Shown: piece after piece, positions 4,700-56,273 of the stretch
Numbering within the stretch: position 1 is the first letter of the stretch
How the letters are laid out: each line of letters starts with the position of its first letter
Assembly: GCF_001949145.1 (NCBI RefSeq)
Contig: NW_019091357.1
Location: forward strand, 1,853,704 to 1,917,703
Source of the DNA: Acanthaster planci
Lineage: Eukaryota
DNA length: 64,000 nt
Reading direction: 5' to 3'
The notes under the pieces: model-generated
Seen by the model: the letters and a program-made list of their open reading frames with translations, nothing else
What the model was told of the DNA's origin: nothing
Databases searched by the model: none
Made by a program: the position numbers and the translations under genes

Positions 4700-5391
4700 A
4701 GTTTGTCCTACGCTGAGCAACGCGTCTCTGAACCAAACGCACGCGGGTTGATTCGTTTCCTAGTACACTGGTAAGTACAATGCTTGCTGGTGGGGTCTAT
4801 GAGAGTTTTTGTACCGCTTATGACCGTATAATTATTGTAGCGAGGGGATTTCATTGTTTTAAAAAAGATTGCTGTGATTGTTTTGTTGTAGTTTAATGGG
4901 AAAAGTTGTCAAGTGAATGAAATGGAAATATCACGCCACTTCGACAACTTTTCGGTTATGTCAGCGGCAGATCGAACTCTAACTTATTCACATTCCGTAT
5001 GTGGGCTTTATTTCTTGTGAAATTCGACATCTTAAAAGAAGCCTAAGTTCAGTGTTGCCACCAAGATCCGTAATACAGGCCACCAAGTATATTAGGGACA
5101 AAGAACATCCTGATTCAATCAGCATTTCAGATTAAAAGCCTTGCATCACTTTCCTTTCATTTAATTGTCAAGTTCCGGTCCACCTTCGCGGTGCTTCTTC
5201 GATCTTCCTTTCGTCAACCTTTTATCGTAGTTTTCCTTGTTCACCTGCCAATTATTTGATTTTGCGTGTGTATGTGTTTCACATGTCAGTTGTTTTTGAA
5301 ATTTATTCTGTGGTTCCGAAATGTACGTTTATAGAGCACTGAAGCAAAGCTTATCAATTCTAACCATTTTTTTTATTGCTCGATATTGTAG
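4700..5391 (+). other. Putative non-coding first exon (ending 4770) and 5'-UTR intron (4771-5391) of the UGM-like gene
   Basis: Strong donor CTG|GTAAGT at 4770/4771, and acceptor TTTTTTTATTGCTCGATATTGTAG| at 5391, just upstream of ATG 5426. The start of this exon is a guess. Confidence 0.4.
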
Positions 5392-5425
5392 GCTGGACAC
5401 GACGACTGTTCCATGCACCATAGGA

Positions 5426-8400
5426 ATGGCGAGTCAATGCAACTTTGTCAGCAGCTCACTGGCAGTCTTTGCCCTCGTTTGTCTTCTCCTGTCTCGCTTC
5501 AACCAACCTCTGGAAGCCAAACTGGCCAAACCCGACCACGCAGTGCTAGATCGGGCGCCAGTACCGGATCCTGATCTCGGGGATGCCACAAAATCCCCCC
5601 TGGCCGGGGAGACATCTTTTGGCGGCAGCGACCAAGGTGAGGAGAGAATAGAAGAAACTGACGGCATGTCAAGGGTAGACTGGTATAAACGGCCGAAAGA
5701 CAACCGACTTGGGGATTCAGGAGACGTCGAAGACCACTGTGGTAAGCAGATCAGAAAAATTTTTTTCGGTTGCGTTTTTGGCAAGGATGGGATCAATGTG
5801 GGGCTGAAATGACGCCCATCGAGTTATCGTTAACGTCCAATACTCAGGCCTCTTGAAGATTTTGAACCATCGGAGGCCAAAAAAAAACCAGTTTAAAACT
5901 TGATCACACATACCGGTGATCACACATACCGGTAGATAAACTAAACTTAGCATTGTTCAGAATAGTGACGATCGATGGTTTGCGGTTTCTATATGCTTTT
6001 GACTTTGGATAGCAAGGCAACCATGTAACCTTTCCTCCTTTTTTGAAAAAAGTGCAGCTGTTCTTGATTTAACTTGGTCTGATTTCCCCTTTCATGTCAT
6101 CTAGCCATTCCCGACATTTTGTCCCAATGACATTGTTCAAGTGCTTCGAGATAATTTAAAATTGTACACACTGAAGTTCAGAGTTTCATTCGTAATTCAA
6201 AAGAAACTGTAGTAAAAACGGTCCTCGAACAAGATCAGTAGCCATCCGGTTGAAACAAAAATTGGGTGTTGAATTTCAATGTTGAATCAATTTTGAAGGT
6301 GTTAAATTTATTTTCTATAATTTGGCACTTTCGACTGCTTTGGTGTGAACTTGAACGCATTTCCATGTTGCTGTGTTAATTCTTAATTAAGGCATAACCA
6401 CGCAAAAGAGGAAATGCTGGTTTTTCAGTCTTCAGTTTGTAGAATTTCTCTTTATCGTTTTCTTTCCTCTCAGAAATCTACCCTGATCGATGCCATCACA
6501 AGGATAACAGACACCGAATCGTCATCATCGGCTCCGGTCCTACCGGTCTGGGAGCAGCCCAGAGACTCTACGATCTCAAACAGGAAGACAATAACACCGT
6601 GGTCACCATCTTAGAGGAGCAAGATAAGCCAGGAGGCCTGGCCTCGTCTGAAAGGGACGATCAGGGATTTCTCTGGGACATCGGAGTCCACGTCGTCTTC
6701 TCCCACTACACCTACTTCGATCGAGTCCTGAATCTGGCCGTGCCCGAGTGGAACTACCGTCGCCGGGCGTCTTTTGCCTTCATGATGGGATCGGATGGGA
6801 TCAGACGCTTCATACCCTACCCCGTTCAGAACAACATCCACACCATGGACAAAGTGGATCAGCAGCGAAGCCTGTCGGGTCTGGAAGAGATCGCCAGGTT
6901 CCCGGCCGGCCGGAAACCCAAGAACTTCGACGAGTGGCTGCTGCAGAAATTCGGGGCGGGCCTCGTTGATGTCTTCATGAGGAAGTACAACCGGAAGATT
7001 TGGACAGTGGACACCACAGAGATGAACTCAGCCTGGGTCGGCGAGCGGGTTGCTGTGCCAGACATTGACGAAATCAAGACCAAGATTGCGGAGGTGGACA
7101 GTGGGGCAAACGCTAAGGATTCCGAGTGGGGACCCAATCGCTTCTTCCGTTACCCGAAATCCAACGGCACGGGTGGTATGTGGGAATCAGTTGCTAGACG
7201 CCTCCCGAGGCGATGGTTCAATTTTCACTCCAAGGTCACCGGCATTGACATTGACCGGAAAGAGATCGCTGTTGAGGTGGGCAAAGATATCAAGAGTCGC
7301 CACACTATGAAATACGATAAACTAATATCCACGGTCCCTCTAGATAGTTTTGTCGGTTTTGTTAAGAGCAGCGATGCGTTACTCAGTGACCTGCAGGGAC
7401 TGGCGTCCCAGCTCATCAACACCCACACTCACATTGTGGGCGTGGGTCTGCTCGGTCAGCTACCCCCAACCCTCGCCGATAAATCCTGGGTTTATTTCCC
7501 GGACTCCGATTCTCCGTTTTACCGCCTAACGATGTTCTCCAATTATTCCGACGACCACGTGCCAGACCCGGCCGCTCACTGGTCGCTCATGTGCGAAATA
7601 GCCGAGCCGGAAATGAGCTCCGATCCAGCGTATTGGAACAGAGACAATTTAGTCAACGAGTCAATACGAGCCTTAGTCTTGTACGGCTTTATAACTGCTG
7701 ATATGGTGATCTCCAAACACTACCGTCGAGTAGAACACGGATATCCTGTTCCTTCTTTAAGTAGAGACATGATCCTTGACAAAGTCCAACCTTGGCTACG
7801 GTCCAAAGACATCTACTCCCGCGGCCGGTTCGGAGGTTGGAGGTACGAGGTTGCGAATCAAGATCATTCCTTCATGCAAGGGGTCGAGGCCGTGGACAAC
7901 CTTGTCCACGGCGTTCCGGAGTTAACGTATCCGGACCCGAATTTGGCCAACTCCAAGAAGAACACGGATCGAATTATCCCGCTGGACTTGGAGGTCGTTG
8001 TAGCCGCTGAACGAGACGAGAGCCTGGAGTGGCTGAAGCCGTTTGCTGAACACACCCTGGTGTACCACTTAGGAACTGACTTGGGACCGTCGCTCCAATT
8101 CTACGCCTGGCAGCGCCTTGAAAGTGTCCATGTCAGAGCACAGGTATTTCTGCACCACATCTGTGTGAATTACAACCAACTGGCAGACCTGACGATCTTC
8201 ACGCAGGGAGACGAGGAGACGAGCAGGTGTCTTCGTTGCCTGAGGAACCCGCGTCAGTTGCCCTCTGCTCCGATTCGGGTCGATCCATGTGAGTGGAGAG
8301 ACTGTTACGGCGACAGCTTGGAAGCTGGTGGCGATCATCAGTTCCCGCGATGTTCCCAGGACAACCCGGCGAGCATGGCCAAAATTGTGCCCGTCTTGAA

Positions 8401-8596
8401 TCAGAATTGTTGGGGATCTGCGATGCCGCTGACGCGACACTGCTGGAACGAGTGCTTCGGAGCAACTAAGGAAATGATTCAGAAACATCCGCTGGATCGT
8501 TATTACCAAGCCTTTAATGATCTGGGTAGAATTTCCGATGAAGATGAAGATAAGGGTGACTTTCTACAGACATTGTGGATTAGAATTTTTACCTAA
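5426..8596 (+). CDS. glf: Eukaryotic-type UDP-galactopyranose mutase (FAD-dependent) with N-terminal signal sequence and C-terminal DUF3431-like domain, ~812 aa
   Basis: Exons 5426-5741 (phase 1 donor G|GTAAG) and 6474-8596. The spliced product restores the Rossmann motif RIVIIGSGPTGLGAA upstream of ORF 6599. Motifs collinear with fungal/trypanosomatid/nematode UGM: PGGLASS..GFLWDIGVHVVFSHY.YFD, PYPVQNN, FMRKYNRKIW, WVGERVAVP, WGPNRFFRYP..GTGGMW, DKSWVYFPDSDSPFYRLTMFSNYS, HGYPVPS, SRGRFGGWRYEVANQDHSFMQGVEAVD, ELTYPDP. Confidence 0.88.
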
Positions 8597-8737: not shown

Positions 8738-8808
8738 GACTGCGTTCTACGCTCTATTCTTTCGTTTAGACGGTGGCTGCGTTCTACGCTCTGTTCTTTC
8801 GTTTAGAC
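8738..8808. repeat. Two-copy tandem repeat (~38 bp unit) in the UGM 3' region
   Basis: CTGCGTTCTACGCTCT(A/G)TTCTTTCGTTTAGAC occurs twice in tandem. Confidence 0.7.
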
Positions 8809-10002
8809 TGTTATCGAATGAATGAGATGATAGAAATATGAATTTATTTGTAAACGGATTTAAACATTTTATGATTTGTGCCAATTGTTATCAATATCAA
8901 GGAAAATAATTCTCGAATTGGTATAAGGCGTTAGGAAGTTGTCTGTGTTAACAGTTTTCCTGCACTTTTGAAATATCAACTATGGTCATAACTACCGTGC
9001 ATTTTAGTATTATCCGTGTACTGTCTTTAATTACGAGTGCGTTCGTTTATTTTATTTTGTTAATTTTTAAATCGTCTTTTTTGCGCCGATGGCCGCCCAT
9101 AAAACCTGAGGCCAAGCATAGACATGGAGGAGAAACCCCAGGTCTATGGGCCAAGATTGCATGCACCGGACTAAAACAGGCGCCCATAGAAAAGAGCGCC
9201 AAATCAGTGAGAAACAGCGCCGCCTAGTGACGCTCAGGGACAGCTTGGTCTTGTGTGTTTCACTGCAAAGTCAAGATTATTATGACACCTCGGCCCAAAA
9301 TGCTTTTCATCATTACCAGTGTTCAATTTTTTAATTCTCCCCTCCCGCAAAATCCCCCCCCCCCAAAAAAAAAGTAGTCAAACTCCAGGTCTGAATTTAG
9401 CCACTCGCCTTTCTGCAAAAGTCCACAAAATGCAGGTTTTTGAGAGTAAAATATCCCAAGTTAGAAGCCACAAGTCCCAAATGTTTGTTCACGTCGGTCC
9501 CGTTGGATCTCAAAATATTAATGAGCTCGCGCGCAGGAATCTACCGAGTGGAATGCACCCCTTAGACAAAGGAGTCCAAAGTAAGGCGGTTTTTTAAGGG
9601 AGAAAACTTGAGAGGAAAGCCTTACACCAAGCCCAATTTATACATTTTACTCTCTACTTTTACTACTCGTATTTTGAACTCCTAACTTTTCCCCTCGCTT
9701 TACTCTTTGGTTTCTGAATGCCATCACGCCACGGGATAAGACTCACCACATCAGCGATCAAAATAAAGACTTCCGTGGACTCAATTGCTTGATTCGCAGC
9801 AATGGCTAATGTAGGGCGTCAGACAGCTCTGACGAGGATTACGATCCAGGTTCAAATGTTATTACACAAAAGACTCGCAAAGTATCTTCTTTCGTCGGGT
9901 AAAGAGGACATTTTACTAAAATTTCCGTTCCATCGGAAATGACAAGGAAACCCCATTATTTTTCGTCTGTTTTGCATATAGAATATTCCCTTAAGCAATG
10001 CA

Positions 10003-10656: not shown

Positions 10657-13600
10657 TTAATCTCTTTTGGGGCGACGTCCCCCACGTCTCCGACTGCAAC
10701 ACGTGTACCAGAGTAACACGTTTGCGCCACAAATGACAGCGAAAACCAGCAGCAAGATCAGATAAACATCGATGAGGTTACGCTGGACGAAGTTCAGGTC
10801 AAACACGGCCGGGCGGAGGTGGTTCCCGCCGAACTTGGTCACGTGAAGGATCCAGTTCGCGATGGTCTCCGCTGGAGGGTTCATTCTCACCAGATCTCGA
10901 AGAATCGCGGAGTAATGCTGTGCGTTCTTGCGGTACCTGAGAGTCAAAAAGGAAGCAAGACAGAATGGATCCCAATAGACCTCTGTACCGATGACACCGC
11001 ACGTTATTTCATGTGTGCTTACCTATCAGTGGACCCTGCACCCTACTGGCTCCACAGGAATGCGCATGACATGTAAACACGGCGTGACATCATCAGTACA
11101 TGGGTATGTTGTCACGCGTTCCTGAGCTTGGATTTTATTTCTGAGCTTCACTTTTCCCTACGAGATGTTTGAAGTGTGTTTTGCGAGTATACTTAATTTG
11201 GGTCTGTTCTGTTCTGCCATTGGTGGCTGTAATTGCAATTTTTTGATGGAGGAAGTTCATGTGAGTTTGGAATATGGGCGATTCACAATAGTGCGTCACC
11301 AAGAGTTTGCAACGCGTTGGCCAATAGTAAAGTGCGAAATCTGTCGACCCTTTCCTAACACGCGTTGGGTCGACGGATTTCGTGCATTGTGATTGGTTAA
11401 CGTGTCGCAAACTCTAGGAAAAGCCCGTACTGTTTAAATGTGGCTGCACAGGCGTCGCTAAACTCTTGTAAACGGGGGAGTCATCTTGAAATTTTCCGAC
11501 GGACATGGTAGACTGATTCCCATCTGATTCCCTGACCTAACATTTAAGAAACCCCCTTCCTTCCTCTTTCGTTCTTTACTCTTTCCTAACCAACCATGAC
11601 TATGCCGACAAAACTGGCCCGGGGGTGTGGCACCCCTACCCTCATCCCCGTATAGCGACACCTGTTTCCGTGACTGAAACTGAACCTGGGGACAACTTAC
11701 TTTGGATTATTAACTACCTCCACGACGGCGTCCCGTAACCTGTCCGATGTCACGCTGGTAATGTCGCCGAGAGAGAGGGCGAAACCTCGGGCCACGGCGC
11801 GGTCGTTGTTGTCAAACATGTCATGTAGAAGCGGTATGCTGACGATCGGGAGTCCGGCCCATAACGCTTCCTGCACGCTGTTGATCCCACACTGAGTCAC
11901 AAACGCTTTGGCGTTCTTGTGTGCTGTACACAAAATGGAAGAAAAACCAAATGTCAACGAGAGATTTCCAAAGGAGCTCAATTTCTTCCAAATGTTTTTT
12001 CTCTGTTTATTGATGTGAATCCTGTTTGTTTCCTTTTTGCCTTTTAAGTTGCCTCATGTGGAGGACATGAGCCGTTCGTCTTGTCTTGAGCCGTTCTTTT
12101 TGTCATATACATGTTTTACGCAGCACTGAAATTTCTTGATTCTCCTTGCATTTGAATGCTTAATCCGAAGCCTTTGCCTGCATTTGAGTTGTTTTCTTGG
12201 CAACCAGCGTCAGTTTCTTCAAGCTATTGTCTTTTTATTCTCTGTCTTTTTTCCATATACGTCTACGGCCTTGTTAGGTTAAGCAGATCGCCTCTTTGGG
12301 ACACATCTCTTGAGTACCATTGGGATTCTAGCAGTTGATTTCAGATTTGGTGACACTCGACTTTTACGGGTCTCTTCACTTTACTTATTTTATTTCAGTT
12401 CAACTTACACAAGAGCTGCAAGAGGGGGATCCAGTTGACCATTTTGGTGTTCTCGCCGAGGTTGAGACCGGTGAAGTTGATGTTGGATTGCCAGAGGACC
12501 TTCTGGGGCAGCAGAGCGAAGCCGTCGGCAAACATTTGCGCCTGTTCGACCTCCATCGCCTCGACATGGGAACCGAGGGAAAATATGACGAATCCGGCCA
12601 GAGCTTCGTCAACGAACTTGGCAACATCATCCCGGAGCTGGAAGTAAGAAAAAATAACAGAAACACTCATGTTTGGACGTGCCTTCAAGAACCCGACCAT
12701 GACAGTAGTTGTTGCAAGGGAGCATATCATTGGCAAATATAAGGCCTATAGAAATAGCTTCTCCTGGCATAGTCGTCGCATTACAATTTTAAAAAGGTGC
12801 CTGAAGTTTTCTTTGTTTTCATTTTGCATATTGATCTCTGCTTTTGCACTTGTCTGGTTATGCTTTTTAAAAGCTAACGTAAGTGCACCTTAAACTATAA
12901 GGGACATCTTTATCTAGGCATGACGTCACACTTGAGGTTTAGGATTGCTGGTTACCTTCTGCCAATATTATTGATACGTTAGGGAACCAGCCCCACTTTT
13001 TATCGGAAAGGTGAAATTAAAGTTTTCGATCTTTTTCTTGACCAGTGAGGGCACAATTGCTTTCATGCCATTGAAGAAAGACACTCTATATTTTTCTCGT
13101 TAAAAATGTGAACGTTACATCTTGTTTTGCACTGAAAATATTTAAGAGAAGAACAATTAATCATTCAAGAAAAGGATTAGAGGATTAGATATTCCATCCC
13201 AGGGTTTACTGAAATCTTATAACTGAGCAGTTGCTGCACGGGGGTTTCCTGCGAATGGTATATCCCACTGTTGCCCATGAGTACCTCGATTTGCATGAAC
13301 ACAAAAGCCCCAAACAGAAATAATACATTACATGCGCCCTGTATATGCCACTTCCTTTTCTACTTTCTTACCGTGTAGTTCTCTCTCTTCCCGCCAATTA
13401 GAGAGGCATACATGAGCGTATTCGGCTGCATCGGTCGGGGAAATTCTAACGGATAGTTCATGTTGAACACCCACAGCCGAGCTTTCATGAGGGACTCGGT
13501 GATGTGAACTTCTGGTTTAATGTTGTACTTCACTTTAAGCTGCTGGTACCGCGTGGGGAAATCGGAAAATATGTATTCACTTGTCCAGTGGAAAATGTAG

Positions 13601-15305
13601 TTAATTACCCGCTGCGACAGCGTCATTCGGTCGGTGAATCCGAGTTGATGGGCCGGAATGTAAGACGGATCGGTTGGGACCCGGAACCTGCGAGAGAAAG
13701 AGATGGGGGCAGTGTTGCTCTTCCCTTACGGGGCTTCAATGGAGGCAAAATGCATGGCGTAATTTTTAGAGCATCTAGTGGATAGCGTTTGTTTTGAATT
13801 ATAACACGGGTCAACAGTTCCACGTGCGCGCTAAATGTACATGCGTGGAGTATAGGATGGCAAGTAACCCACAGTGCCTTGCGCATCAGTTGCTGTGACG
13901 TTTAATAAGGCATTTCACCTTTCCCAGCCCATGAGCCCTGGGGACGAGTGAAAGGGATAGCAAAAATCTAGTAGTCTTAGCACAAAACGTTCTCATCGTT
14001 TGAGCTCTTACACAGCGATTCCAATAGTCTGGCTCTTGGACCTGTGGGAAGTATGAAACCATCAGCATTGCCCCCCCCCCAAAAAAAATTGACAATTTCC
14101 AAACTATTTCGAGGACTTAAAAGGCATTAGTACACTAAAAACTGGGCCTTTCTGACAAGGAAGTGGAAAAAGGCCCAGCTTTCCTATTTCCCAAGATTTC
14201 CCTTGAATGTGCTTGTAGACATTTTGTACAAACACTGACTACTTTTGTGTTGGCAGCCGGTTTCCAGAACTCGCATTTTGCTTCATCAGCCGTAAAGAGG
14301 GGGACATTTTCGTTTACCAGTCACTAGAGGTGTTATTTATTTCTGTGGATTTTTCTTAATGTTTGCTCGAGATTTTGTCGCACTTTGCGAATACGGGCGT
14401 TTCACAATAGTGCGCCACCAAGAGTTTGCAACGCGTTGGCCAATCGCAATGCACGAAATCTGTCGACCCAATGCGCGTTTGGAAAGGGTCGACAGATTTC
14501 ACGCGTTGTGATTGGCCAATGCGTTGCAAACTCTTGGTGGCGCACTATTGTGAATCGCCCGTATTTCCACAGCTGGCCATATATAGTTTTGTCACTGAAA
14601 AAGGAGTTCGCTTGAGGCGCAGCAAAGGAGATGTGCATTTGGTGCTTGGCAGAAGAGTGCAATATCTAGAAGCAACAAATACCAGTGAAATACTCACAAG
14701 GGCCCGTACTTGTCCGGCATGGCACACCAGTTAGCTAACTGCACGAAAGGGATGTCCAGTGCCTCTGCCACGATCGCGTTGCAAAGTGAGAAGTCATCCG
14801 CGACCATCATGTCAAACTGCTCACGACGGAGTCTCGCCATAGTCTTCTCATCCCTCAACAAGGCGTCACACTCGTCAATAAGCAGATAGATCACTAACGG
14901 TTTACCGGTCCGGAGGGTTCGCAAGATCAAGCGGGCTATCCCCGCCGCAGAACTCAGCTCTCCCGAGAGGGAGTAGTGAGACAGTTCCCGGAACACGTCG
15001 CGCCGGCCCTCCGTCGTGTAGTTAGACTGGAAGAAGATGAAGGAAAAGAGATCGTTGTCGTTTGTCTTGGGCGCCCGCGGCCCGTCGCTGCCGACCAGGA
15101 AGAACACGTCGTGCCCCTGACGCGCCAAGACCTTTCCCGACTGGCTGAGCTGCATGCCGTGACTTCCAAGTTTCTCGAAGGAGTAGTACAAAAACTTGTA
15201 TTTTTTGAAGTCTTGCTTAGTCTCCTCGCAGCCTGTCGGAAGCGGTGCTGCTGAAAAGCACATCAACATCAGGAGGAGAGTCCAGGCTGAGAGTGCGGAA
15301 TTCAT
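10657..15305 (-). CDS. UDP-glycosyltransferase (GT1, animal UGT / UDP-glucuronosyltransferase-like), type I ER membrane protein
   Basis: Exons 15305-14698, 13687-13372, 12637-12409, 11923-11701, 10936-10657 (TAA), phases 2/0/1/2 consistent. Signal peptide MNSALSAWTLLLMLMCFSAA, LGSH (catalytic His), LARQGHDVFF, FDMMVADDF, VPTDPSYIP, MTLSQRVIN, LEFPRPMQPN, GFVIFSLGS, UGT signature, C-terminal TM helix and basic tail RRGGRRPKRD. Confidence 0.92.
11271..11429. mobile_element. Palindromic MITE family A copy in the last UGT intron
   Basis: AATATGGGCGATTCACAATAGTGCGTCACCAAGAGTTTGCAACGCGTTGGCCAAT...GCCCGTA; the right arm is partly deleted. Confidence 0.75.
14390..14565. mobile_element. Palindromic MITE family A, best-preserved copy (~176 bp, ~80 bp arms)
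   Basis: Left arm AATACGGGCGTTTCACAATAGTGCGCCACCAAGAGTTTGCAACGCGTTGGCCAATC... is almost the exact reverse complement of the right arm ...GATTGGCCAATGCGTTGCAAACTCTTGGTGGCGCACTATTGTGAATCGCCCGTATT. TA sits at both ends. Confidence 0.85.
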
Positions 15306-15894
15306 GGTGGCCTTCGTTAGCAACACAATCTGCAAATGGCGCAAATGACAGAAACAGTGAGACTGTAATGTTTCCAAGATTCCATCCCGCAATGCAGAAG
15401 TTGGCATTGACACTACATACATTCAAGGGCGGATCAAGGAGGCCATCGAGGGCCATGCCCGCTCCAAGAAGCCAACTTTATTTTCTTATATACATAATGA
15501 GAGGGGGGTCATTTGTGGTCTATTTCTTTTCCCTCCAAAAAGACCTTTTGCTTTTGCCTTTTTTCCGGGGGGGGGCGTGCCATGCATGTTTCAAACAAGG
15601 GAATTTACACATTAAAAAACTCACCCAAAATTCGAGACCCTAATGCAGAACAACAAGGTGTCGAGCGACGCAGAAGTGCTGTCAGATCAGTTCAGATATC
15701 GTAGCCCGTCTGAACACTTCTACCTTTACGCTTGACCTTTCGTTTATTTATAGACGGCAGAATTGAAGTTCATTCTCTGAACATTACCTGTATCAAAGTC
15801 TCTGTTAGAGACAGCGAATGCTGAAGTGTAGGCTGAAATAATTAATACCAGGAATGTCATGGCACAAGTGCCTGGCAGAATGGCGTTTGGACAG

Positions 15895-28700: not shown

Positions 28701-31700
28701 ATGGATGACGAACAAGTGAAAGACACGGGCAAGGAATCACCACTACGCATCCAAAACAATGATCTGGACGAGACACTGCCACCCTGTAAGGAGTGTGAGA
28801 GGCATTTCTTCTCCAGAACCAACACATTCAATGTGTTTGATGGGGCGGTTGTCCTGATATCGATGGTCACGTTTGCTGCCGACATTGTGACGGGTACGGT
28901 ACTCGTACGTACATTAACATGACGTAGGCCACAGGCCAGCACTGTTTTCGTTATTTTCATTGCACTGTTACCTTTACCTTGAGACCGGAGGCGAAATCAA
29001 CTACACGTTCTCTATGCTAAGTTATAGCATTAGCAGTAGACATGGTAGATAGTTGACAGAGAACTTGATGTCTGTATTATTTTTTGCTCTTTTATCGGAA
29101 CGGCACGGGGGGGGTGGGAACGGGGAGCACAGATGCGCAAACATGGTGGTCATGATCAGATGATAGTCCATTTCTGATTCGTCCATGGAGGTTTTTATTC
29201 CTTCAAGGATAACTGATATGACAAGCAGAAGTGTAACAAATAGAATTATTAGAAGTATTTCCCTGGTTCTCTGCTTGAATTATTTTGGCTGTCGTATTCA
29301 CCTGTTCACGAGATGGGATTCATTTGTTTGTAACTGAAACAATTTAGACTTGTTAGGCCTACAACTTAAATGGGCCTACATGAAATACAATATACAAGAT
29401 TACGTGACTTCCCTCAAAAATATATTTTAAGTACGTACCGTACTGATGTAGATGCAGAATGGCTACTGGAAAGGCCTCAAACATGTCAAAGGCTGTAGGG
29501 GGAGCCTGTGAGTTTTTTAAGTAGCTGTACATGTGTATTCTCTCTATCAGAGATCCAGGAACCTCAAGTATTTCTGCATCATGTCGAAAAGCATGACAGG
29601 GGATTTTTCATACGCTAAATAAAGGCCTTAATGATGTCATGTCAAACGCAATAATGTATAGAGCAAGGAAACAGCTTGCTTCATCAGTGTCTGTCTTTTG
29701 GTTAGGATGGTGACAGAAGTGTTACAAGACTTCCAAATTTAGTTGACGACATTGTACAATAAATGGGCATTTATGGTGCCAGATTCTGCAACGGCACTAG
29801 GCCTTTTTATATGTGGTGAGTTCAATACGCACACTGCCCAGCAAGCATGTCAACCTGGATGTGACCCCCCCCCAACACACACACACTTAGCAGTTCCATG
29901 TATTTTCATTTTCCTAGGTGTTTTATTTTTCCATAGACACTGATCAGCTGATACATGTACATTGTACAAGTTTGTCTTTACTTCCAGTGGTAGCCCAAAT
30001 TCCTCCCTAACCGCTCCAAGCGGAACAAGAGAGGCGTGTTTTTTTGGGTACTCACCGCAAGGACGCGCCATGAGGCGTGCAAGTATATATGTGTGTTCGA
30101 CACGGAGCACACTGAGCACGTGTAACTAATTTACTCCGGCATGTAGAGTCTTTGCATACATGCAGAATGCTTGCAAGGACCCGCTTGTAACCACCTGTCT
30201 TTCTTTTCAACGATTGGGGGCGCACTTCAGCTCGGGGCGGATACCCCACAAGGACTTTTCAAGGCAAATAAAGCCCAAGTTACACGCTAGTCTGGCTCCT
30301 GTTTCAAATGCTGCAGATTGCTGTGGTACCATGCAGAAGTGCACAGCATCCAGTCTAACATCCTGGAACTGTAGCCACGACATTAAAAACAAAATCTTCC
30401 AGGGCCATGAACCAGTTGTTTATACAGCTAATCAATCATGAAATAGACAAAGCTGAAGCCAAACTTTCAACCAAAAAGCAAACTGAATGAATTTTTTTTC
30501 AGATGGCCTGGCAGCAAGTCAATATTTTGTCTACGGGGAACCAGGCTGGGGTTGCCTGACTCTCAGTTTTACCCTGGTTCCCTCCATCATCATACAGTTG
30601 TTCAGTGCACGCTGGTACTTAGCTGATGAAGACATGACTGGTTGGAGATGGGTCTTCCATTGCTGCCTCCTTGGACCCATAGAGAGGTACATGTATCAAT
30701 GTGTACATTTTGCACACCAGCCTCCACCCTCAATCTGGGATTTGTCCTTTTTTACAAATCTCAGACTTGTTTTAATCTTGGCTGCCTCTCAAACTCTGCC
30801 ATCAATCAATCTAAAATGTTTTAAACGTGAAATCAGAAAAACTGTCCTCCACGGTCACGTCAGACAGTCCAGCAAGTTTTTACGATCCACTCGAATAGTG
30901 TTCAGTGATTCATATATACGGTTCCACGCAATGGCTTCAAAATGTTTGTCTTTAAATCGTAGCTCAGAGCTAGCCTGTGGTGGACTTTTCTTTATTTGTT
31001 TGTTTGTTTGGTTTTTTTTTCTTTCAATAGATATCTCACTGTCTTTGAGACTGGACTGGAAGCCCGACGGAGCAGGGATCCACTTGACTTTGAGCGTTTA
31101 CATCACCAGCAGAGTGATGTGAGCATGCTTCGTTTGTTTGAGTCATTTTTGGAGTCGGCTCCCCAAGTTGTCTTGCAGCTCTACATCATGGTCGCGACCA
31201 ACGATGAAAACCTCTTCACAGGTGATAAATTATGGGGTTCTTTTCCAAAATTTCCCTTTACTGTACATCTAGTAAATTTTTTTTACCACATTTCATCAGA
31301 CCATTTCATCAGACCAAAACTTGTTTTCCCTATTTTTTCCATACAGGTATAGCCTGTATAGTGTCACTGATATCTCTCTGCTGGGCCATGGTTGCCTACA
31401 ATCGTGCACATCGCCGCGTAAGAGCGGACAAGAACAGCGTGTCAATAGCTGGCGCTGCCCTCCAGACTATCTGGCGCATCGGAATGATCTCGTCGCGCGT
31501 TGTTGCCCTGGTGCTGTTTGCCTCTGCCTTCCGAGCTTACACGTTTTTGGTAGTAGGTAAGTTTAAAATGTGTTATCTTTGATCACTTTCACCCATATGA
31601 AATGCAAGCTTTAATACCTGACTGAAAAGACAAGGATTAAAGCACCATCTGCAAAAGTGTTACCCCTGACCAACAGGCTTGTACATGTAGTCAGTTTTTT

Positions 31701-34700
31701 TAAATGTCCAGGCCAACTCCCTGTTGAGTGTAACATCAATGCTCCATCGTTGGATGTCTGAGTTAATTCTTTTCTCTTGGCTTCAGACTGAATCAGAAAA
31801 GATAGTTTGCTTAAGGATGCTACTTGAAGGATCCCTTCTAGTCTGAAAAGATACAGATCAGAAGTAGGTCTTTTCAGCTTAATGATGGTACAATAACATT
31901 GCATGATTTGCAAAGTCTGAAATTTCCATATGACCGAATCCCTACTCCTGTTTCTATGTGGTTTTTGGACCTTACAAGATGAGGAATGAGCGAGACCAAA
32001 GCTGATGCAGTTGGTATGAAGAGGCTCTTGACTTGAAAAATGAATTGTGAATGTACCTGCATTTTGACTTCTTTCCATGGAGCCTTCCCTTCTAGCACCC
32101 TACTCAAGCCAGCAGTTGTAACCATGTGATCCTGCAAACATGAGACATTTCCGTAGATCAGCTGAAATCTGCCATTATTCACTTGCCATCCACACCATCA
32201 CAATTTGAAAACTAGGACAATATCCTTTGCGTCTCTCAGACTCTCAGTTGCATCCCAGGTTCTGATCTCTGACAACTCGCTCCCTCCCCCGACCCCAGAA
32301 TAATTTTTGCCGTCCCTTTCCCGTCTGGCCCCAGGGATACACTGGCTGGCCATGGTGGCCTGGGTCTACCTCCAGCAGACCGACTTCTGCGACTCCTGGC
32401 TGGAGGAGAGGCTCTTCAACTGTGTCGTGGCAACTGTCTACATTTTCTGCTTCTTCAACCTGAAGGAGGGCAACACGCGGTACCGCATCAGCATCTTCTA
32501 TCTGGTGGTTGCCGTAGAGAACGTGGCATTGCTACTGCTGTGGCACCATTTTGGGATGCTGGAGGATTGGTACACCTTCCTGGGGTTCACGGTGGTGTTT
32601 GGTGGCTTCATCATTGGTGAGGTTTCATTTCTCTTCCCATCCCCGATATCTTATTAAATGTGGTGTCCCGATTTTTGTAAACATTTAATGCAGGTCGAGT
32701 GTTGTGAAAGGCAGTATAATGTAGAGAGAAATTATCATTTGAGTTCAGTTGGTGCCGGAATTTTTGGCGTGCCCGTGCTGTGTCTCTACACTTTAAGCTA
32801 CTATCCATGAAGCGTATGGACATTGTGACAGCTCAAGCGTGGAATGTTGAAGCTGTGTTTTTCTTCTTCTCAACACCATGCCGTTGAACTTGGGTTAAAA
32901 TATCATGGAATATTGCAAGAGGAGGGTGTGGGCCTGTCAGTAAATGGTATTATTTGGTTTACTTGACGGTCTCCTCCCCTCCCCACAGGTGTCACAACAA
33001 TGATCTTGTACTACAAATACTTCCATCCCAGAGGGGCCATATCATTCTGTAACAGCGCCCCCCGTGACAAGAATGACATCTGTCAACACGGTAAGTCCAA
33101 CCGTCTGTCAACTCTCGGTCATCGCCACGACAACTTGGATGCCGAGATCTTTCGCCGCTCCAGGACCCCTTCTCCACAGAACTCCCCTCACGATGAGCAA
33201 GCTGGTCACTGCTTGGAGGGCCCATACCCTGATATGGCAGTAACCCCCCATAAGTATTCACCCCCCAAGACTAACCCTGACTGTTTGGATTGGCGAACAG
33301 TACCCCCGCTCAGGAGCAAGAGCTTAAGCTGCTTGCTTTCAACAGAAAAGGAATGCCTAAATGGAAGACAGTTCTCACAAGGTACCAGATCGTTACAGTG
33401 CCTGGAGGAAACGGGTCGTCCATCTAAACTATCATCATTCCCTCCCCAAAAGTGCCCAGAATCGTGCACTTGTAGTTTTCAAGCTTATGAGCTGTCGGGC
33501 TTTGCCACGGACTTGGCAGATAGATTTGATAGGTGCAAAGAACTGGCACTTGCTGAGTCGTTACTGTCCGACGAGTCGAAGTTGAGTCTGTACTCTGCCC
33601 GGCCAGGTGCTGCTGTGAACCAAACGCCATGCCGAGCTTGCCTGAATTTGGGGAACAGTCAGTTAAAGCCAATAGCATCAGTTGGGAACAGGTTCCGATC
33701 CCGTTCCCAACCAAGTACACCATCAGTCACCCATTGGAGCAGTCCTGCTTATTATGAAATCCACCAATACCCCCACCCCGCTGTCCATTTGGCCACTAGC
33801 ACTGAGGCCCACCACCCACCCACTCCTCAAAATGCTGTGATTCCAGAAAGTACAGATAATGCAATGGAAATCAGCCGAGCGTCGGCTGACTTGCCTCCAA
33901 TGCCCAGCTTCATTGATTCCCCTCAAACGGCTGGCAAATTGAATGCATATGAAATCCAGAAAATATATGATCAGATACTTGAGAGGGAGCCCTTGCCCCG
34001 TGTCTCTAAAAGACAGTTAAAGTTTGATAAGGATCTTGAAGACTGTCATGTGAATTGCCAAGGAGGTCCCATTTCCAACTTTAGCGAGGCTTTTCAAAAT
34101 TGTCCCGGGGCTGTTGACAAAGCCAGGCAACCCAAAAGTCAGTTTGGCAAAGACGCTGCCTTAAATATAACAAAATGTAACCAGTTGCTCGATGCAAAAC
34201 TCAAAGCTTCAGCCAGAACTGATGAACATAAAAAGAAACCTTTCAAGTGTAAACTGCAGAGGGCGGAAAAGCCTGAACACGATGAGAGTGAATCATTTCC
34301 AGACATATACTGTGAGCAACTGATAACTAGCGAGGCCAAGCAGCCTGAAAATGAAAGAAGACTTTCAGAATGTGTGTCCAATGTAGCAGACCTCCCTTGC
34401 GATTCTGCCCCTGACAGTGAAGACTACAGGCACTTCATGCAGCAGACAAATCCCGGTGCTTGCCCAGAGCTAGGCACGCTGTCCCCAGAGGTTCTTGAGC
34501 CTAACCAAATACCACAACAAGCTGGCGTTAATGTCTCCGCTCTTGCTGGACCACCAAGTCCACGAGGACACGTTGTTCCCAATCTGGGAGGAAGCCATAG
34601 TACAGTGGCCTGCTTTCGTAGATTGTCGATGCAAGATGTTGCCGAGAACGATACCCTGGTTAACATCCCTGTCGTCTCAAAGATCTCTCACAAGGTCCAA

Positions 34701-35384
34701 GGAGGCGAAAATATCACTCCTGACCCGATCACAGGCCCCACTGATGAAACCGACATCTATCCATTCAACCAAACTTCTGATCGTCGATCAGTCTGTCCTA
34801 AGAACCTCTGCCAAGTTTCCACAGTTGGAAACTTGAAGGAGGAAGACTGTGAAAACCGTATGAACGCAGAACCAGCCTGCGTCATCGAAAATGCCCCTTC
34901 CTCTCCCTCACTTTCCCCCTGTCCTTTCGAGCCGATCGGTACAAACGGTAACAAAAGCAACCATCTCAGTCCCACGCAGACCACTCGTGAGCCAAAGCCC
35001 CTGGAAGACTCCACCTTTGCCGGTGACTCGCGGAAAAATGGCCAGCATTTCAAGAAAGCACAGAGAAGCGTTCTTCTTGCATCAGGAAACAAGAACCCCC
35101 CGCCCGCTCCTCTGCCTGTCCCGAGTTCGCCTCGCGGCGCAAGTCCCAAGGGCCACAAGGCCAGGCTTGGTCAGACAGGCGCTTGCCTGTCGTTGGATGT
35201 TCCCATCGCCCGCTCCGGACAGGGCAAAGAGAACAACAGCCCCTTGACTCCCCTGAGTGCCAGGTTGGCCCTCCTGTCTCCCACTCCCAACCCTTCCCCA
35301 GCCCTAAAGAAGCCTCCACGGAAATCCCTGGGTAGAATCCCGACCAATCTCGTGGCTGACAAGGTGGCCCTTTTTAACAATTAA
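28701..35384 (+). CDS. XKR: XK-related protein (XKR4/6/7-like phospholipid scramblase family) with a very long C-terminal tail
   Basis: Exons 28701-28893, 30503-30686, 31031-31221, 31347-31556, 32335-32616, 32989-35384 (TAA); phases consistent. XK motifs: FAADIVTD, QLFSARWY, DVSMLRLFESFLESAPQVVLQLYI, SLISLCWAMVAY, SRVVALVLFAS, HWLAM, FCFFNLKEGNTRYR, ENVALLLLW, MILYYKYFHP. Confidence 0.92.
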
Positions 35385-52800: not shown

Positions 52801-54032
52801 ACGGTGTCCCCCCCCCGACCCCGGCTCAGAAATCTGTTAAGACTCGGTCTTGGTTAGCGTTTTGACTGTGACCAAACCCACTGAGTGCCACCTTCCAGAA
52901 AATGAGGGCTACCAAGTACCCCTCGCAAAATGTACCCCAGTTTGGCCACTGCCCCCTTCCCCTGTTTAAAAGGCAAAACTCGCGTTATTTCAATCTAGTC
53001 AACTTTGGGGGCAGATATAGCATTTTTGAGTATGTACCGCGATTCCTAAAAAAAAAAGATAAAACTGAAAATGCTACGCCTTTACCATAACATCGATCCC
53101 GACTGTTGTGCAGCAGGGGGCGTGCTAACCGTAGTTGGGATCAGCCTGATCAGTCAGGACATATGCTGCTGCTTGGACGGGAAAAAAGAAGGGTTATAGG
53201 ATACAGATTGGAGCATGGAACCATCTTCAAGATATTAATGTTTAGAGAAATTGTTCGGCTGTGAACTATGCAGAAGAGATTCATTGTGTTTACATTGGCA
53301 GATTTTTTTTGTCCCTGAGTTTCTCAGTCTGTAACCGAGTATACGACGGTAACCACTCTGGGTATGTACGCTATTGCCAACATGGATGGTAGCCTAAAAA
53401 TCTTTACACGTATACCATTCTTTAAAAACATTAACAAATCACTTCTAAACTCACTTTTTTCCTTTATTTATTGGTTAATTAATTTTCCAAGCGCCTCAAA
53501 GTGCAGTGAAATGAGTAATTAATCCACGCGAGCCCTGTTTCCTGAAATAAAAAGACATAAACTGTACGATCATTTTAAGGTCGACCGTGCACTTGGCTAA
53601 GCCCGAGGGGGTATGCTTACGCCGTCCCTGGAAGTATTGTATTGCATCGCACGTGCAGCTGCACTGTGCAAGCTCACCCTCCATGTGTTGAGCTCTCTCG
53701 ACCTCCCCTCTTTGAAAAATGCAGTGACCCTATCCTTTAGCCCCTCCTGATTGGTCAACGGGTTGCTTTTACCGTGTCTTTCTGGTAGTTAAAACAATGC
53801 GAATGATCATGGGGAGTTAGTCGTTAACGTGGCGATATTTTCGACTCTTGCCTGGTTAGTTTCGACACCGTCATTTTGCCGGAAACGCTGCTTTTGTGTG
53901 GCAACGTCGGAATCGTAAGATTTATAACACCGATGGTCGGTCAGTTTGAGTTGATCCGCAAGCAATTAAGAGATCAGAATTAAGAAAAAAATACGTCCGT
54001 TTTACCATCTTTGCAAACGATTTTGACTCGAA

Positions 54033-54638
54033 ATGACGAAGCAGCCCGAATTATCTCTGGACGCTGATCAAATGGATGCCACAGTACTGACCCTGCTTGG
54101 GGAACAGAATGACACCGGCCATGACAACACCGAGCAATCCAAGCCCAAGAAGCGAGGACGAAAACGCAAAGAGCCCGCTGACACCCAGACAGAAGCGGAC
54201 CCCAAACCCGCCAAACGCGGCCGGGGCAGACCCAGCAACGCTTCGGCGGCCGCTGCATCGGCCGCGGCCGCGTCGGCCGCCCGGGCCGCGGCCAATTCTT
54301 CCCCGTCCTCCTCGTCCGGGTCCGAAGTCTGCAACGCCGCCCGCGAGCGTTCGCGTGTCAAGACGCTCCGTGACGCCTTCCTGGATCTTCAGAGGTCCCT
54401 GCCCTCTGTCCCTCCGGACACCAAGCTGTCCAAGCTCGATGTCCTGGTCTTGGCGACGACCTACATCGCTCACCTCATGAAGACCTTGGACGGGGATGCC
54501 GATGTGCCGGAGTTTGGCTCTTTATTAAGATCGGGGCGAGAGGCGAGAGGCAGCGGAAGCAAAGACGGGGGAGACACTGGGGCAAACTTGGACCACAAGC
54601 ACCGACTCAAAGCCGACGGATACCTCCACCCTGTCAAG
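54033..54638 (+). CDS. TCF24: bHLH transcription factor of the TCF24/TCF23 group, first coding exon (the rest was not found in the window)
   Basis: [52 protein letters not shown] and DGYLHPVK are characteristic of TCF24/23. There is a donor AAG|GTCAGA at 54638/54639, where the family normally continues KWPMRSRLY. Confidence 0.88.
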
Positions 54639-56273
54639 GTCAGAATTTTGTTAATTAATTAGAAGAAATAATAGTTTCTATGCAGGAGGCGTAGTATTAC
54701 TTACAGATCAGTTTAAGAAAAGCTCATTGCAATTTACTCAAAACATGAGAGCTTCTACCTACTAAACAAAACTAGCAATTGCCAAAATGTTCGGTACAAT
54801 CCCTAAATGGCTTTCTAAAGTAATTCACCTCTAAATCTGAATATCACAGACGTTACGGATATCATGCCGTTTCACCCTTCTGTGTCTATTTTGGTGACAA
54901 AGTTTCTAAAAGCGTTTCTGTGAGTCATTCTGAACACTTGTCGTTCATGAATGTATACAGAGGCCATTGTAACTTTTAGTTCAAATTCTGTCTTGTTACG
55001 GCTCGCAAGTTGTTGTCGGAGGAATTAGCGCCTGACCGTTTTTATCCGTGTCTTCTTTGTAGTTCTGCAGTGTTGACTATTAAATTCATATGCTCTCCTC
55101 GTGAAGTGCAGCAAACCGTTTTTCCAGACGTCGTTGTTTGAATGCCGTTTGTGTAGAAACTTATAACCATCTCAAGCAACTTCAAGTTGATCACGGAAAA
55201 GTTTGTCTTGGAGCTTTTTCGTAATCCTATCCTGTGAACTCGAAATAGACAAACCCATTGCGGGTTTAGTGAACCATGAAACTGCATGCAAAACTGTAAC
55301 AAAACTAGGCGAAACAACAAGGTAAATTGCGACTTTTTGGCATAATATTCAATGATTATTTGGGACAACCAGTGGTCTAAGAAGTGATAAAATGAACAGT
55401 TGAACTCGATCTGCAATCTTCTTTCTCTACAAATGATACACTGACAAGCGATCCAACTTTATCTCGATCCATTATTCAGCAGCAGTCATAAATGTCTCAG
55501 ATCCATCTGAAGTCAATATTTTGACAAAACATTTAAGTGACGCTCCGAAGGTTTATGGTCGCTCTGCCCACGGCCCTAGCTCTTTACGGCCAAGTGCGAA
55601 TGATGTCTTTATGTACATGTACACCCGCGCCCGGGCAGTAGACTTGAACTCAAAGTTGGTCGCGTAGTTTATGCACAGCCACGTACCGTGCGTTACCCGG
55701 ACCGTGTGAGGTGACCGCAAATAGGCCAGTTTGGCCGGCGGGCTGTCATCGTCTTTCAGCGGCTCGAGCTGACGCAGAAACTCGGTCTTGGATCAGGTGT
55801 AACTGCGTTGCAGTCTCATACACTCCCCCTACACCTCTGCCGTGTTAATCGTGACTACAAAACGCGATATTCAAAGATGGCACCTTGCATTGTGAATGAT
55901 ACCATGGAGATAATGACTTCATCAGATACAGGCTAATTGCTACGAAAGTAACGCTATACTTTGTATATCAAGTAGTCTTTAATATGTTAAATCTTTGTTA
56001 CCTCTGTCATTGGCGTATTAAAATGTGTATTCGAAATTGGGGGGATGACCTACCATAGATATTTGACAAGCGAGAGGGGCGGCACACCATATACACTATA
56101 TAGGGGGCGATGTTCACGATAAAGACGTACATCTGAAATGTTTATCAAATTCACGCAGAATATTACATCAGAATGGCACATTTATTGCTTAGTGATATTT
56201 CAAACATTTTAGTCTTTAGGAAATCCTGTAAGTTCTTCACAGTCAGCTTTATTTTTGTTTGTGCTCATCACAA

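Follow-up and report, generated by a model that had tools for sequence, protein, structure and literature searches.

What does an animal gene for a uridine diphosphate (UDP)-galactopyranose mutase (UGM) encode in full, and where in the cell would its product act? The question is raised by a locus in a stretch of 64,000 nucleotides from the sea star Acanthaster planci (contig NW_019091357.1 of RefSeq assembly GCF_001949145.1, positions 1,853,704 to 1,917,703 of the forward strand), hereafter called the window. To our knowledge, UGM has been studied mainly as a drug target, and animals are said to lack the enzyme with the exception of the nematodes. A preliminary description of the window, made from the nucleotide sequence, placed a eukaryote-type UGM at 6474..7980. 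In this report, we describe the locus as a gene for an 812-residue protein that combines an N-terminal signal peptide or membrane anchor, a eukaryote-type UGM domain predicted to be active, and a C-terminal DUF3431 domain. The last of these has a predicted glycosyltransferase A (GT-A)-like fold, and its catalytic function has likely been lost in this paralogue. We assign a probability of about two-thirds to this reading.

The locus is an expressed sea-star gene with three exons and a product of 812 residues. Its structure is confirmed by raw RNA-seq reads that carry the same species label as the window, and the coordinates are collected in Table 1. The spliced coding sequence of 2439 nucleotides contains a single stop codon, which is terminal. 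The 5′-untranslated exon is joined to exon 2 by a GT..AG joint from 4770 to 5392 that skips 621 nucleotides and is covered by 8 reads with 6 starts in run X8; the consensus of the loose ends of 9 reads from the same run matches positions 4740-4769 of the window exactly. Exon 2 is bordered by an acceptor AG at 5390-5391 and a donor GT at 5742-5743. The reading frame that opens with the ATG at 5426 aligns with the N-terminus of a Patiria miniata homologue (P0002, LOC119727075, 805 residues), residues 7-111 of which were aligned by tblastn to 5447-5761 of the window. The donor at 5742 and the acceptor AG at 6472-6473 are in phase, and the joint between 5741 and 6474 is covered by 17 reads (14 starts) in X8, by 4 reads each in X11 and X13, and by 1 read in X15. 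The RNA depth is zero over 5820-6439, within intron 2.

The boundaries given in the preliminary description stand in part. Position 6474 is indeed the first base of exon 3, and 7980 lies close to the end of the UGM homology (residue 502 of the 707-residue exon 3 translation P0001, nucleotide 7978). However, the frame of exon 3, which is open over 6443-8596, runs on to 8596, and the coding sequence begins in the upstream exon. The 616 nucleotides that extend past 7980 encode a DUF3431 tail of about 205 residues. What had been taken for a plain UGM is thus the middle of a longer protein with a signal or anchor before it and DUF3431 after it. The RNA depth is unbroken from 6440 to beyond 8900, and no splice joint lies between the two domains, so that both are transcribed within one exon and their fusion is no artefact of annotation. 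The depth drops beyond approximately 9100-9500, where the 3′-untranslated region ends. Reads over the coding sequence show no frameshifting insertions or deletions. The reads assigned to the gene number about 300 in X8, 42 in X11, 4 in X12, and 0 in X9, with almost none in X15. A tblastn search with P0001 found no further copies in the window.

Two features of the untranslated regions were also recorded. An out-of-frame ATG in exon 2 (5413-5415) lies 13 nucleotides 5′ of the main start and opens an overlapping frame of 53 codons; around the main start at 5426, position -3 is A and position +4 is G. In the 3′-untranslated region, a stretch of 37 nucleotides (8757-8793) is missing from some reads (5 in X8, 2 in X11, and 1 in X13). 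The stretch is one copy of a tandem duplication with an overlap of 15 nucleotides, its ends read TT..TG, and the gap is most likely an indel allele rather than a product of splicing.

Table 1. Positions of the gene, its domains and motifs, and neighboring features within the 64,000-nucleotide window.
Feature	Positions	Strand	Details
5′-untranslated exon (noncoding), 3′ end	4740..4770	+	donor GT 4771-4772
Exon 2	5392..5741	+	residues 1-105 and first base of codon 106; start codon 5426-5428
Hydrophobic segment, predicted signal peptide or signal anchor	5438..5494	+	residues 5-23
Intron 2	5742..6473	+	732 nucleotides, GT..AG, phase 1
Exon 3, coding part	6474..8596	+	residues 106-812 and TAA 8594-8596
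Eukaryote-type UGM domain	6497..7978	+	P0001 residues 9-502, full-length residues 114-607; GSGPTG Rossmann motif
Histidine loop	6683..6691	+	G-V-H; A. fumigatus UGM has G-G-H (G61-G62-H63)
DUF3431 (PF11913) domain, GT-A-like predicted fold	7985..8593	+	Pfam and AlphaFold2 model
N.GRE.H.Y motif position, degenerate	8123..8149	+	reads SVHVRAQVF
EEGHY.ER motif position, degenerate	8543..8572	+	reads DKGDFLQT
UDP-glucuronosyl/glucosyltransferase gene (GT1, PF00201), complete, five exons	10660-15422	-	Pfam and RNA joints
Exon-sized open reading frame, XK-related domain	30487-31119	+	E 5e-13
805-codon open frame	32967-35384	+	locally GC-richer region
Exon-sized open reading frame, basic helix-loop-helix domain	54027-54659	+	E 1e-13

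The central domain is a UGM of the eukaryotic type, as the preliminary description had it. When P0001 was compared with all PDB chains using phmmer, 14 distinct sequences were matched at E ≤ 0.001, and all of them are UGMs, from Aspergillus fumigatus or Trypanosoma cruzi only. The best match has an E-value of 3.8e-118 and is collinear over residues 9-502. Among the PDB chains, neither amine oxidases nor protoporphyrinogen oxidases nor bacterial UGMs were found at E ≤ 0.001. The AlphaFold2 (AF2) model of P0001 has a predicted local distance difference test score (pLDDT) of 82.2 and a predicted template modeling score (pTM) of 0.79, a value that is silent on any fixed packing of the two domains with the UGM part being 70% of the modeled chain. 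Foldseek searches with this model returned UGMs with E-values of 6e-50 to 3e-47, template modeling (TM) scores by target of 0.82-0.93, and identities of 38-41%. The next class, the protoporphyrinogen oxidases, follows at about 1e-22 with identities of 13-15%. The anticipated collinearity with the fungal and trypanosomatid enzymes is thus found, and a grouping with non-UGM flavoproteins, which had been named as the outcome that would overturn the assignment, is not what the searches gave: UGMs come first by far in sequence and in fold. All of the motifs named beforehand are present in the translation (WVGERVAVP, EWGPNRFF, KSWVYFP, SPFYRLT, EHGYPVP, SRGRFGG, and WRYEVANQDHS), together with the GxGxxG motif for binding of flavin adenine dinucleotide (FAD), which reads GSGPTG. 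On the UGM part, Pfam gives only the generic families NAD_binding_8 (E 3.4e-10) and Amino_oxidase (E 2.1e-11). Because of this, the homologues, whose gene models are public, are named only "Amine oxidase domain-containing protein" or "uncharacterized protein", much as had been foreseen for automated annotation.

The residues that contact the ligands in the A. fumigatus enzyme are listed in Table 3 of PMC3624792, and their counterparts were read from the phmmer alignment in A. fumigatus numbering. The side chains that contact the diphosphate and the galactose are identical at seven of seven positions (R182, N207, Y317, R327, Y419, Y453, and N457). Further contacts that are identical are T18, L46, H63, V64, Y104, Q107, F158, N163, W167, R447, Q458, and S461, and the changes are D38E, S39E, G62V, F106V, and G456A. 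The histidine loop noted in the preliminary description is therefore present with Gly61 and His63 retained, but it departs from the Aspergillus form at its middle residue. A word-index search with the exon 3 product found 2140 proteins at E ≤ 0.001 among 7999 scored, and the best 120 of these are the homologues referred to below. Position 62 is Gly in 94 of them, Val in 6, and Phe, Leu, or Asp in 1 each; in the other 17 it was not located. In the bacterial UGMs treated in PMC3624792, the same position is occupied by Ala or Pro, and the contact to flavin N5 is made through the backbone. Conserved columns were defined by at least 90% agreement among 44 sequences, namely the 46 of alignment A1 minus the window protein and P0002. 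The UGM part contains 183 such columns, of which the window protein keeps 180 and departs at 3. From these residues, the UGM domain is predicted to be catalytically active.

The gene belongs to a family that is expanded in sea stars. Among the 120 homologues, 109 carry PF11913 in precomputed annotation and are fusions of the same kind, with 700-800 residues. The matches listed represent 10 loci in P. miniata, 9 of them with DUF3431, and 8 loci in A. planci, 7 of them with DUF3431. Asterias amurensis contributes 1 locus without DUF3431, the sea cucumber Holothuria leucospilota 2 loci, and the corals Desmophyllum pertusum and Oculina patagonica 3 loci together. The preliminary description had considered this gene the likely source of furanose donors in its lineage; it is instead one paralogue of many, and the DUF3431-less forms are to be counted among them. 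The nearest proteins are from sea stars. P0002 shares 74% identity with the window product over the whole exon 3 product, and the other sea-star paralogues share 54-65%. Together with the spliceosomal introns and the animal-type neighbors, this agrees with the deuterostome genome that had been supposed from the sequence. In a FastTree phylogeny of the UGM part (midpoint-rooted without an outgroup; 121 sequences, being the window and the 120 homologues with none dropped; support values not inspected), the window protein is sister to P0002 and lies inside a sea-star-specific expansion. P0002 is likely the orthologue of the window gene. The sea-star forms without DUF3431 appear nested among the fusions in the same tree, which we take only as a lead.

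Such an expansion could also mean that the mutase now acts on a different UDP-sugar, such as UDP-arabinopyranose/furanose or an analogue with fucose or N-acetylgalactosamine, and that the paralogues serve to diversify the donors. The number of loci in P. miniata and A. planci among the matches listed fits this proposal, as do the replacement of Gly62 in a subclade (6 of the 120) and the F106V change, which falls at a position that contacts the uracil. Sea-star glycosides also contain arabinofuranose. Against the proposal, the galactopyranose (Galp) contacts R182, N207, and N457 and all of the diphosphate contacts are unchanged, and nearly all of the conserved UGM columns (180 of 183) are kept. 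We consider a change of sugar rather unlikely.

The C-terminal domain matches PF11913 with 27.1 bits (cutoff 25; E 4.3e-6), over profile positions 1-70 of 219 only. An AF2 model of the tail (P0122, 208 residues, from an alignment of 96 rows) has a pLDDT of 79.4 and a pTM of 0.80. The best Foldseek match of this model is the Stealth-type phosphotransferase CpsY (E 3.8e-4), which is followed almost only by GT-A glycosyltransferases, e.g., of families GT6, GT2, and GT13, with TM scores of 0.3-0.5. A search with VIA, which is independent of Foldseek, gave 50 of 50 top rows with a nucleotide-diphospho-sugar transferase or nucleotidyltransferase fold at Z 6.7-9.1, although Z-scores of 7-8 are common for models without a true match. 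The best of these are heparosan synthase (Z 9.1), dolichyl-phosphate mannose synthase (9.0), and ArnC (8.9). Since the fold scores are middling, the tail is called GT-A-like with moderate confidence only. In the region where a DxD motif would be expected, the strand LTIFTQGDEE has an acidic patch at its end, and the corresponding column is variable in the family (QGD, QAG, QAD, or QGE).

The company that DUF3431 keeps in other proteins provides a clue to its role. A HMMER profile built from three tails (A3) found 5343 representative proteins at E ≤ 0.001 and 2804 at 1e-10. The top list contained 149 new proteins, 59 of which have at least 380 residues; 57 of these were scanned with Pfam, and two of approximately 3000 residues were omitted. 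A eukaryote-type UGM was present in 7 of the 57 and the bacterial-type UGM domain GLF (PF03275) in 1, P0203. Other domains of glycosyltransferase type (Gly_transf_sug, Caps_synth, Glyco_transf_7C, Galactosyl_T with GT2, LicD, and GT90) were present in 11, an FkbM methyltransferase domain in 1, and ankyrin repeats in 15. Like the window protein, P0203 has a mutase on the N-terminal side of DUF3431, of which it contains two copies, but the mutase is of the other class (Glf) and no hydrophobic N-terminus precedes it. As judged from its domains, P0203 is an independent case of the pairing, and DUF3431 is thus fused to both classes of UGM. A role downstream of UDP-galactofuranose (UDP-Galf) is therefore predicted for DUF3431, which is found beside glycan-building domains and with mutases of either class. 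Stand-alone forms of 200-300 residues are common, and their clusters in the ESM Atlas are mostly viral. Word-index searches were too insensitive to recover such forms here: no stand-alone close relative of the P0122 tail was found at E ≤ 0.001 among 79 candidates, and with the canonical tail of P0003 only 1 of 24 shorter proteins was matched (P0123). The names of 10 DUF3431 representatives are uninformative, one from JGI reading "ankyrin repeat protein/mannosyltransferase OCH1-like enzyme".

Two further architectures were seen among these proteins. Giant proteins of 800-3000 residues (P0135, P0136, P0144, P0156, P0165, P0190, and others) combine ankyrin repeats with 1-5 copies of DUF3431 and DXD-type glycosyltransferase domains. 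In a second class, with 400-470 residues, DUF3431 is N-terminal and the C-terminal half, of about 220 residues, is unannotated.

The third part of the protein is its N-terminus. Residues 5-23 form the only strongly hydrophobic 19-mer in the 812 residues (Kyte-Doolittle mean 2.06), and the top 8 Kyte-Doolittle windows all begin at residues 2-11. The sequence FNQPLEAK that follows is conserved in P0002 as FNRPLDAK (FNxPL[ED]AK), and an acidic, proline-rich, stem-like segment of about 80 residues then leads to the Rossmann fold. Among the first 30 homologues are 15 named gene models from sea stars, each with either a hydrophobic 15-mer (Kyte-Doolittle ≥ 2.0) before the Rossmann motif or no recognizable motif. 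In the named sea-star paralogues, the hydrophobic 15-mers lie at residues 7-18, and this includes P0062 and P0077, which have no DUF3431. More widely, 82 of the 120 homologues have a methionine start and a recognizable GxGxxG; at least 29 residues precede the motif in 47 of these 82, and a 15-mer with a Kyte-Doolittle value of at least 1.8 was found in 28 of the 47. From this segment, we infer that the protein enters the secretory pathway, that is, the endoplasmic reticulum (ER) and Golgi. Two other observations are hints of a lumenal position. The tail is rich in cysteine, with 9 of the 14 cysteines falling within the DUF3431 domain, in the last 145 residues of the protein, and a DUF3431 protein of Aspergillus nidulans is predicted in PMC5519750 to have one transmembrane helix with the bulk of the protein outside.

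A conventional alternative is that the enzyme, like those of fungi, trypanosomatids, and nematodes, is a cytosolic UGM that feeds a UDP-Galf transporter of the Golgi, with an N-terminus that does not target the protein and with DUF3431 as an accessory cytosolic domain. This is the route of the reviews, in which UGM is cytosolic and UDP-Galf is imported into the Golgi for the transferases, and the characterized eukaryotic UGMs are all described in PMC7278926 as cytosolic. NADPH (reduced nicotinamide adenine dinucleotide phosphate), the known reductant, is cytosolic as well. The fusion P0203 manages without a hydrophobic N-terminus, and the largely viral clusters of stand-alone DUF3431 mean that the domain can function in the cytoplasm. 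However, the hydrophobic segment and the motif after it are conserved in the Patiria orthologue, and such a segment is present in the named sea-star paralogues; the cysteine-rich tail and the predicted outward-facing fungal protein also speak for the other side of the membrane. We regard a cytosolic location as improbable.

In the paralogue studied here, the tail has degenerated. The DUF3431 part of alignment A1 contains 35 conserved columns, and the window protein departs at 11 of them, including those of the N.GRE.H.Y and HY.ER motifs; the HY.ER columns read D-F-L-Q-T. N.GRE is kept in 94 of the 120 homologues and in 128 of the 149 top DUF3431 representatives. HY.ER is kept in 87 of the 120 and, in its strict form, in 81 of the 149, and a looser form ([HY][YFW].E[RK]) is found in 126 of the 149. 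Most family members thus retain both motifs, unlike the window protein. P0002 has the same three-part architecture as the window protein and has likewise lost N.GRE, but it keeps HY.E, though not the R. The UGM part is 84.0% identical to that of the Patiria orthologue and the DUF3431 part 55.3%, whereas in three other Patiria/Acanthaster pairs of similar UGM identity the tails are 68-81% identical. By these identities, the DUF3431 domain of the window paralogue is evolving faster than its UGM part. The tail is nevertheless intact, transcribed, and to all appearance folded, and seven invariant residues of alignment A2 are kept in it (Y32, W47, Y68, T75, F77, Y178, and W203). It is likely that catalysis by the tail has been lost or changed and that a structural or binding role has been retained.

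The whole gene might instead be in decay, transcribed but with no catalytic role for either domain. The loss of the DUF3431 motifs would fit, as would the divergence of this domain, which is faster than in the other pairs, and the low or absent expression in X12, X9, and X15. The 812-codon frame is nevertheless intact and correctly spliced, the reads hold no frameshifting indels, the UGM part is closely conserved with its contact residues kept, and even the tail retains 55% identity and its invariant residues. Decay is, in our estimation, highly improbable. A foreign origin, by fungal or symbiont contamination or by recent horizontal transfer, is suggested by the fact that eukaryote-type UGMs are best known from fungi and protists and that DUF3431 is common in fungi and viruses, but it is close to refuted by the two spliceosomal introns confirmed by reads with the same species label, the animal-type neighbors (the spliced UDP-glycosyltransferase gene, the XK-related exon, and the helix-loop-helix exon), and the location of orthologues and paralogues in annotated sea-star genomes, on scaffolds of 2-48 Mb.

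Several points, beyond the middling fold scores of the tail, weigh against an active lumenal mutase with a glycosyltransferase-like tail. UGM needs a reduced flavin, and the eukaryotic enzymes are reduced by NADPH (PMC3624792). The main difficulty is that a reductant for the flavin is not evident in the oxidizing lumen. The G62V change adjoins the contact to flavin N5, so that the activity of the mutase could drop. Fewer than 29 residues precede the Rossmann motif in 35 of the 82 homologues with a recognizable start and motif, and among the 47 with longer N-termini, 19 have no strongly hydrophobic 15-mer. An anchor is thus not established for the family as a whole, although many of the short N-termini may belong to unnamed models that lack a separate first exon. 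The hydrophobic core of the window protein is short, approximately 16 residues, so that the segment may be either a cleaved signal or a type II membrane anchor. The catalytic role given to N.GRE and HY.ER is an inference from their conservation, and we know of no DUF3431 protein with a demonstrated activity.

On the reading that we favor, the hydrophobic N-terminus would bring the protein into the ER or Golgi, and the FAD-dependent ring contraction that interconverts UDP-Galp and UDP-Galf would take place in the lumen, which already contains UDP-Galp. The equilibrium of UGM is reported as 11:1 in the direction of UDP-Galp (PMC7278926). In canonical members of the family, the fused DUF3431 domain would act as a furanosyltransferase and consume the thermodynamically disfavored UDP-Galf on the spot. 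In the window copy, the tail would be only a scaffold or a module for binding the acceptor, or it would have an altered activity. Glycolipids or steroid glycosides with furanose sugars, such as are found in sea stars, would be the products. Galactofuranose (Galf) is documented in the steroid glycosides and gangliosides of starfish (PMC7278926, PMC3509529), and so products exist for such enzymes.

A bolder proposal, which we offer tentatively and hold to be doubtful, is that echinoderms and corals possess a self-contained Golgi "mutase-transferase" machine, in which a lumenal UGM turns imported UDP-Galp into UDP-Galf and the attached DUF3431 domain uses it immediately. DUF3431 would then be a hitherto unrecognized furanosyltransferase family, whose members number in the thousands across fungi, algae, and viruses. 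Such a fusion would bypass the UDP-Galf transporter and pull the equilibrium toward the product, and the expansion would underlie the Galf-containing gangliosides and steroid glycosides. The dead tail of the window paralogue might then be a docking module, perhaps for the neighboring UDP-glycosyltransferase.

The assignment of the UGM domain by itself adds a further member to a known kind of enzyme. What is new is the architecture of signal, UGM, and DUF3431, which is expressed and has expanded in sea stars. In the literature that could be searched, with subscription papers outside it, there is no description of an echinoderm or coral UGM, of a UGM-DUF3431 fusion, or of a lumenal UGM, and no function is assigned to DUF3431. 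Eukaryote-type GLF homologues in tunicates are said to have been noted by Beverley et al. in 2005. The Ciona UGM genes in PMC13390645 are of the bacterial type. In the sea stars UGM is an expressed and expanded gene family that is found in a sea cucumber and in corals as well, and its architecture challenges the textbook route from a cytosolic mutase by way of a UDP-Galf transporter to a Golgi transferase. It also raises the question of how a lumenal flavin could stay in its reduced form. That DUF3431 is fused to two classes of UGM suggests a hypothesis about the function of this domain, which occurs in at least 5343 representative proteins. Finally, the family supplies candidate genes for the Galf-containing gangliosides and steroid glycosides of starfish, for which no enzyme was found in the searchable literature.

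A neighboring UDP-glycosyltransferase (UGT) gene lies tail-to-tail with the UGM-DUF3431 gene at a distance of about 1 kilobase. Its four introns (10934-11697, 11924-12408, 12638-13371, and 13686-14695) are all confirmed by RNA. The UGT gene is expressed in X8, the run that also has the most reads for the UGM gene, and shows hardly any expression in X9 or X15; a statement about coexpression would need more than four runs. It is possible that the UGT is a functional partner for the glycosylation of small molecules such as steroids. Within one of its introns, the interval 14390-14565 has an RNA depth of 20-46x in comparison with 0-9x nearby in all four runs. It also has many loose ends, and joints of opposite strand connect it with 10055, 11294, and 11353. 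The interval resembles a dispersed repeat that is transcribed and of which the window contains inverted copies. Farther away, the 805-codon frame has no match in Pfam and no convincing neighbor in the ESM Atlas (best 0.77, recognition 1075), and it may be a large low-complexity exon. The XK-related and basic helix-loop-helix frames are consistent with ordinary animal genes and fit a metazoan chromosome.

The protein can finally be set beside the systems that are known. The Aspergillus galactofuranosyltransferase GfsA (PDB 8YRL), a Golgi enzyme that uses UDP-Galf (PMC7278926), aligns to the DUF3431 model with a Z-score of 7.4 over 151 residues. DUF3431 differs from GfsA and from other GT-A enzymes in having no detectable sequence similarity to them (4-14% identity in the fold alignments) and no clear DxD (QGDEE). 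Caenorhabditis elegans GLF-1 and the filarial UGMs resemble the window protein as eukaryote-type UGMs that are encoded by animals, and the nematode enzymes are single-domain proteins. Galf has been reported in nematodes (PMC7278926, PMC5244609). The UGMs of A. fumigatus (UgmA or AfUGM; PDB 3UTE and 3UKH, among others) and T. cruzi (4DSG and 4DSH) are collinear with the window protein over approximately 494 residues and share with it the predicted fold, the GxGxxG motif, His63, and all of the side-chain contacts to the diphosphate and Galp. These enzymes are free-standing proteins of about 480-510 residues that are described as cytosolic (PMC7278926), whereas the sea-star protein has a signal or anchor with an N-terminal extension of approximately 100 residues, a G-V-H loop, and a DUF3431 tail of approximately 205 residues.

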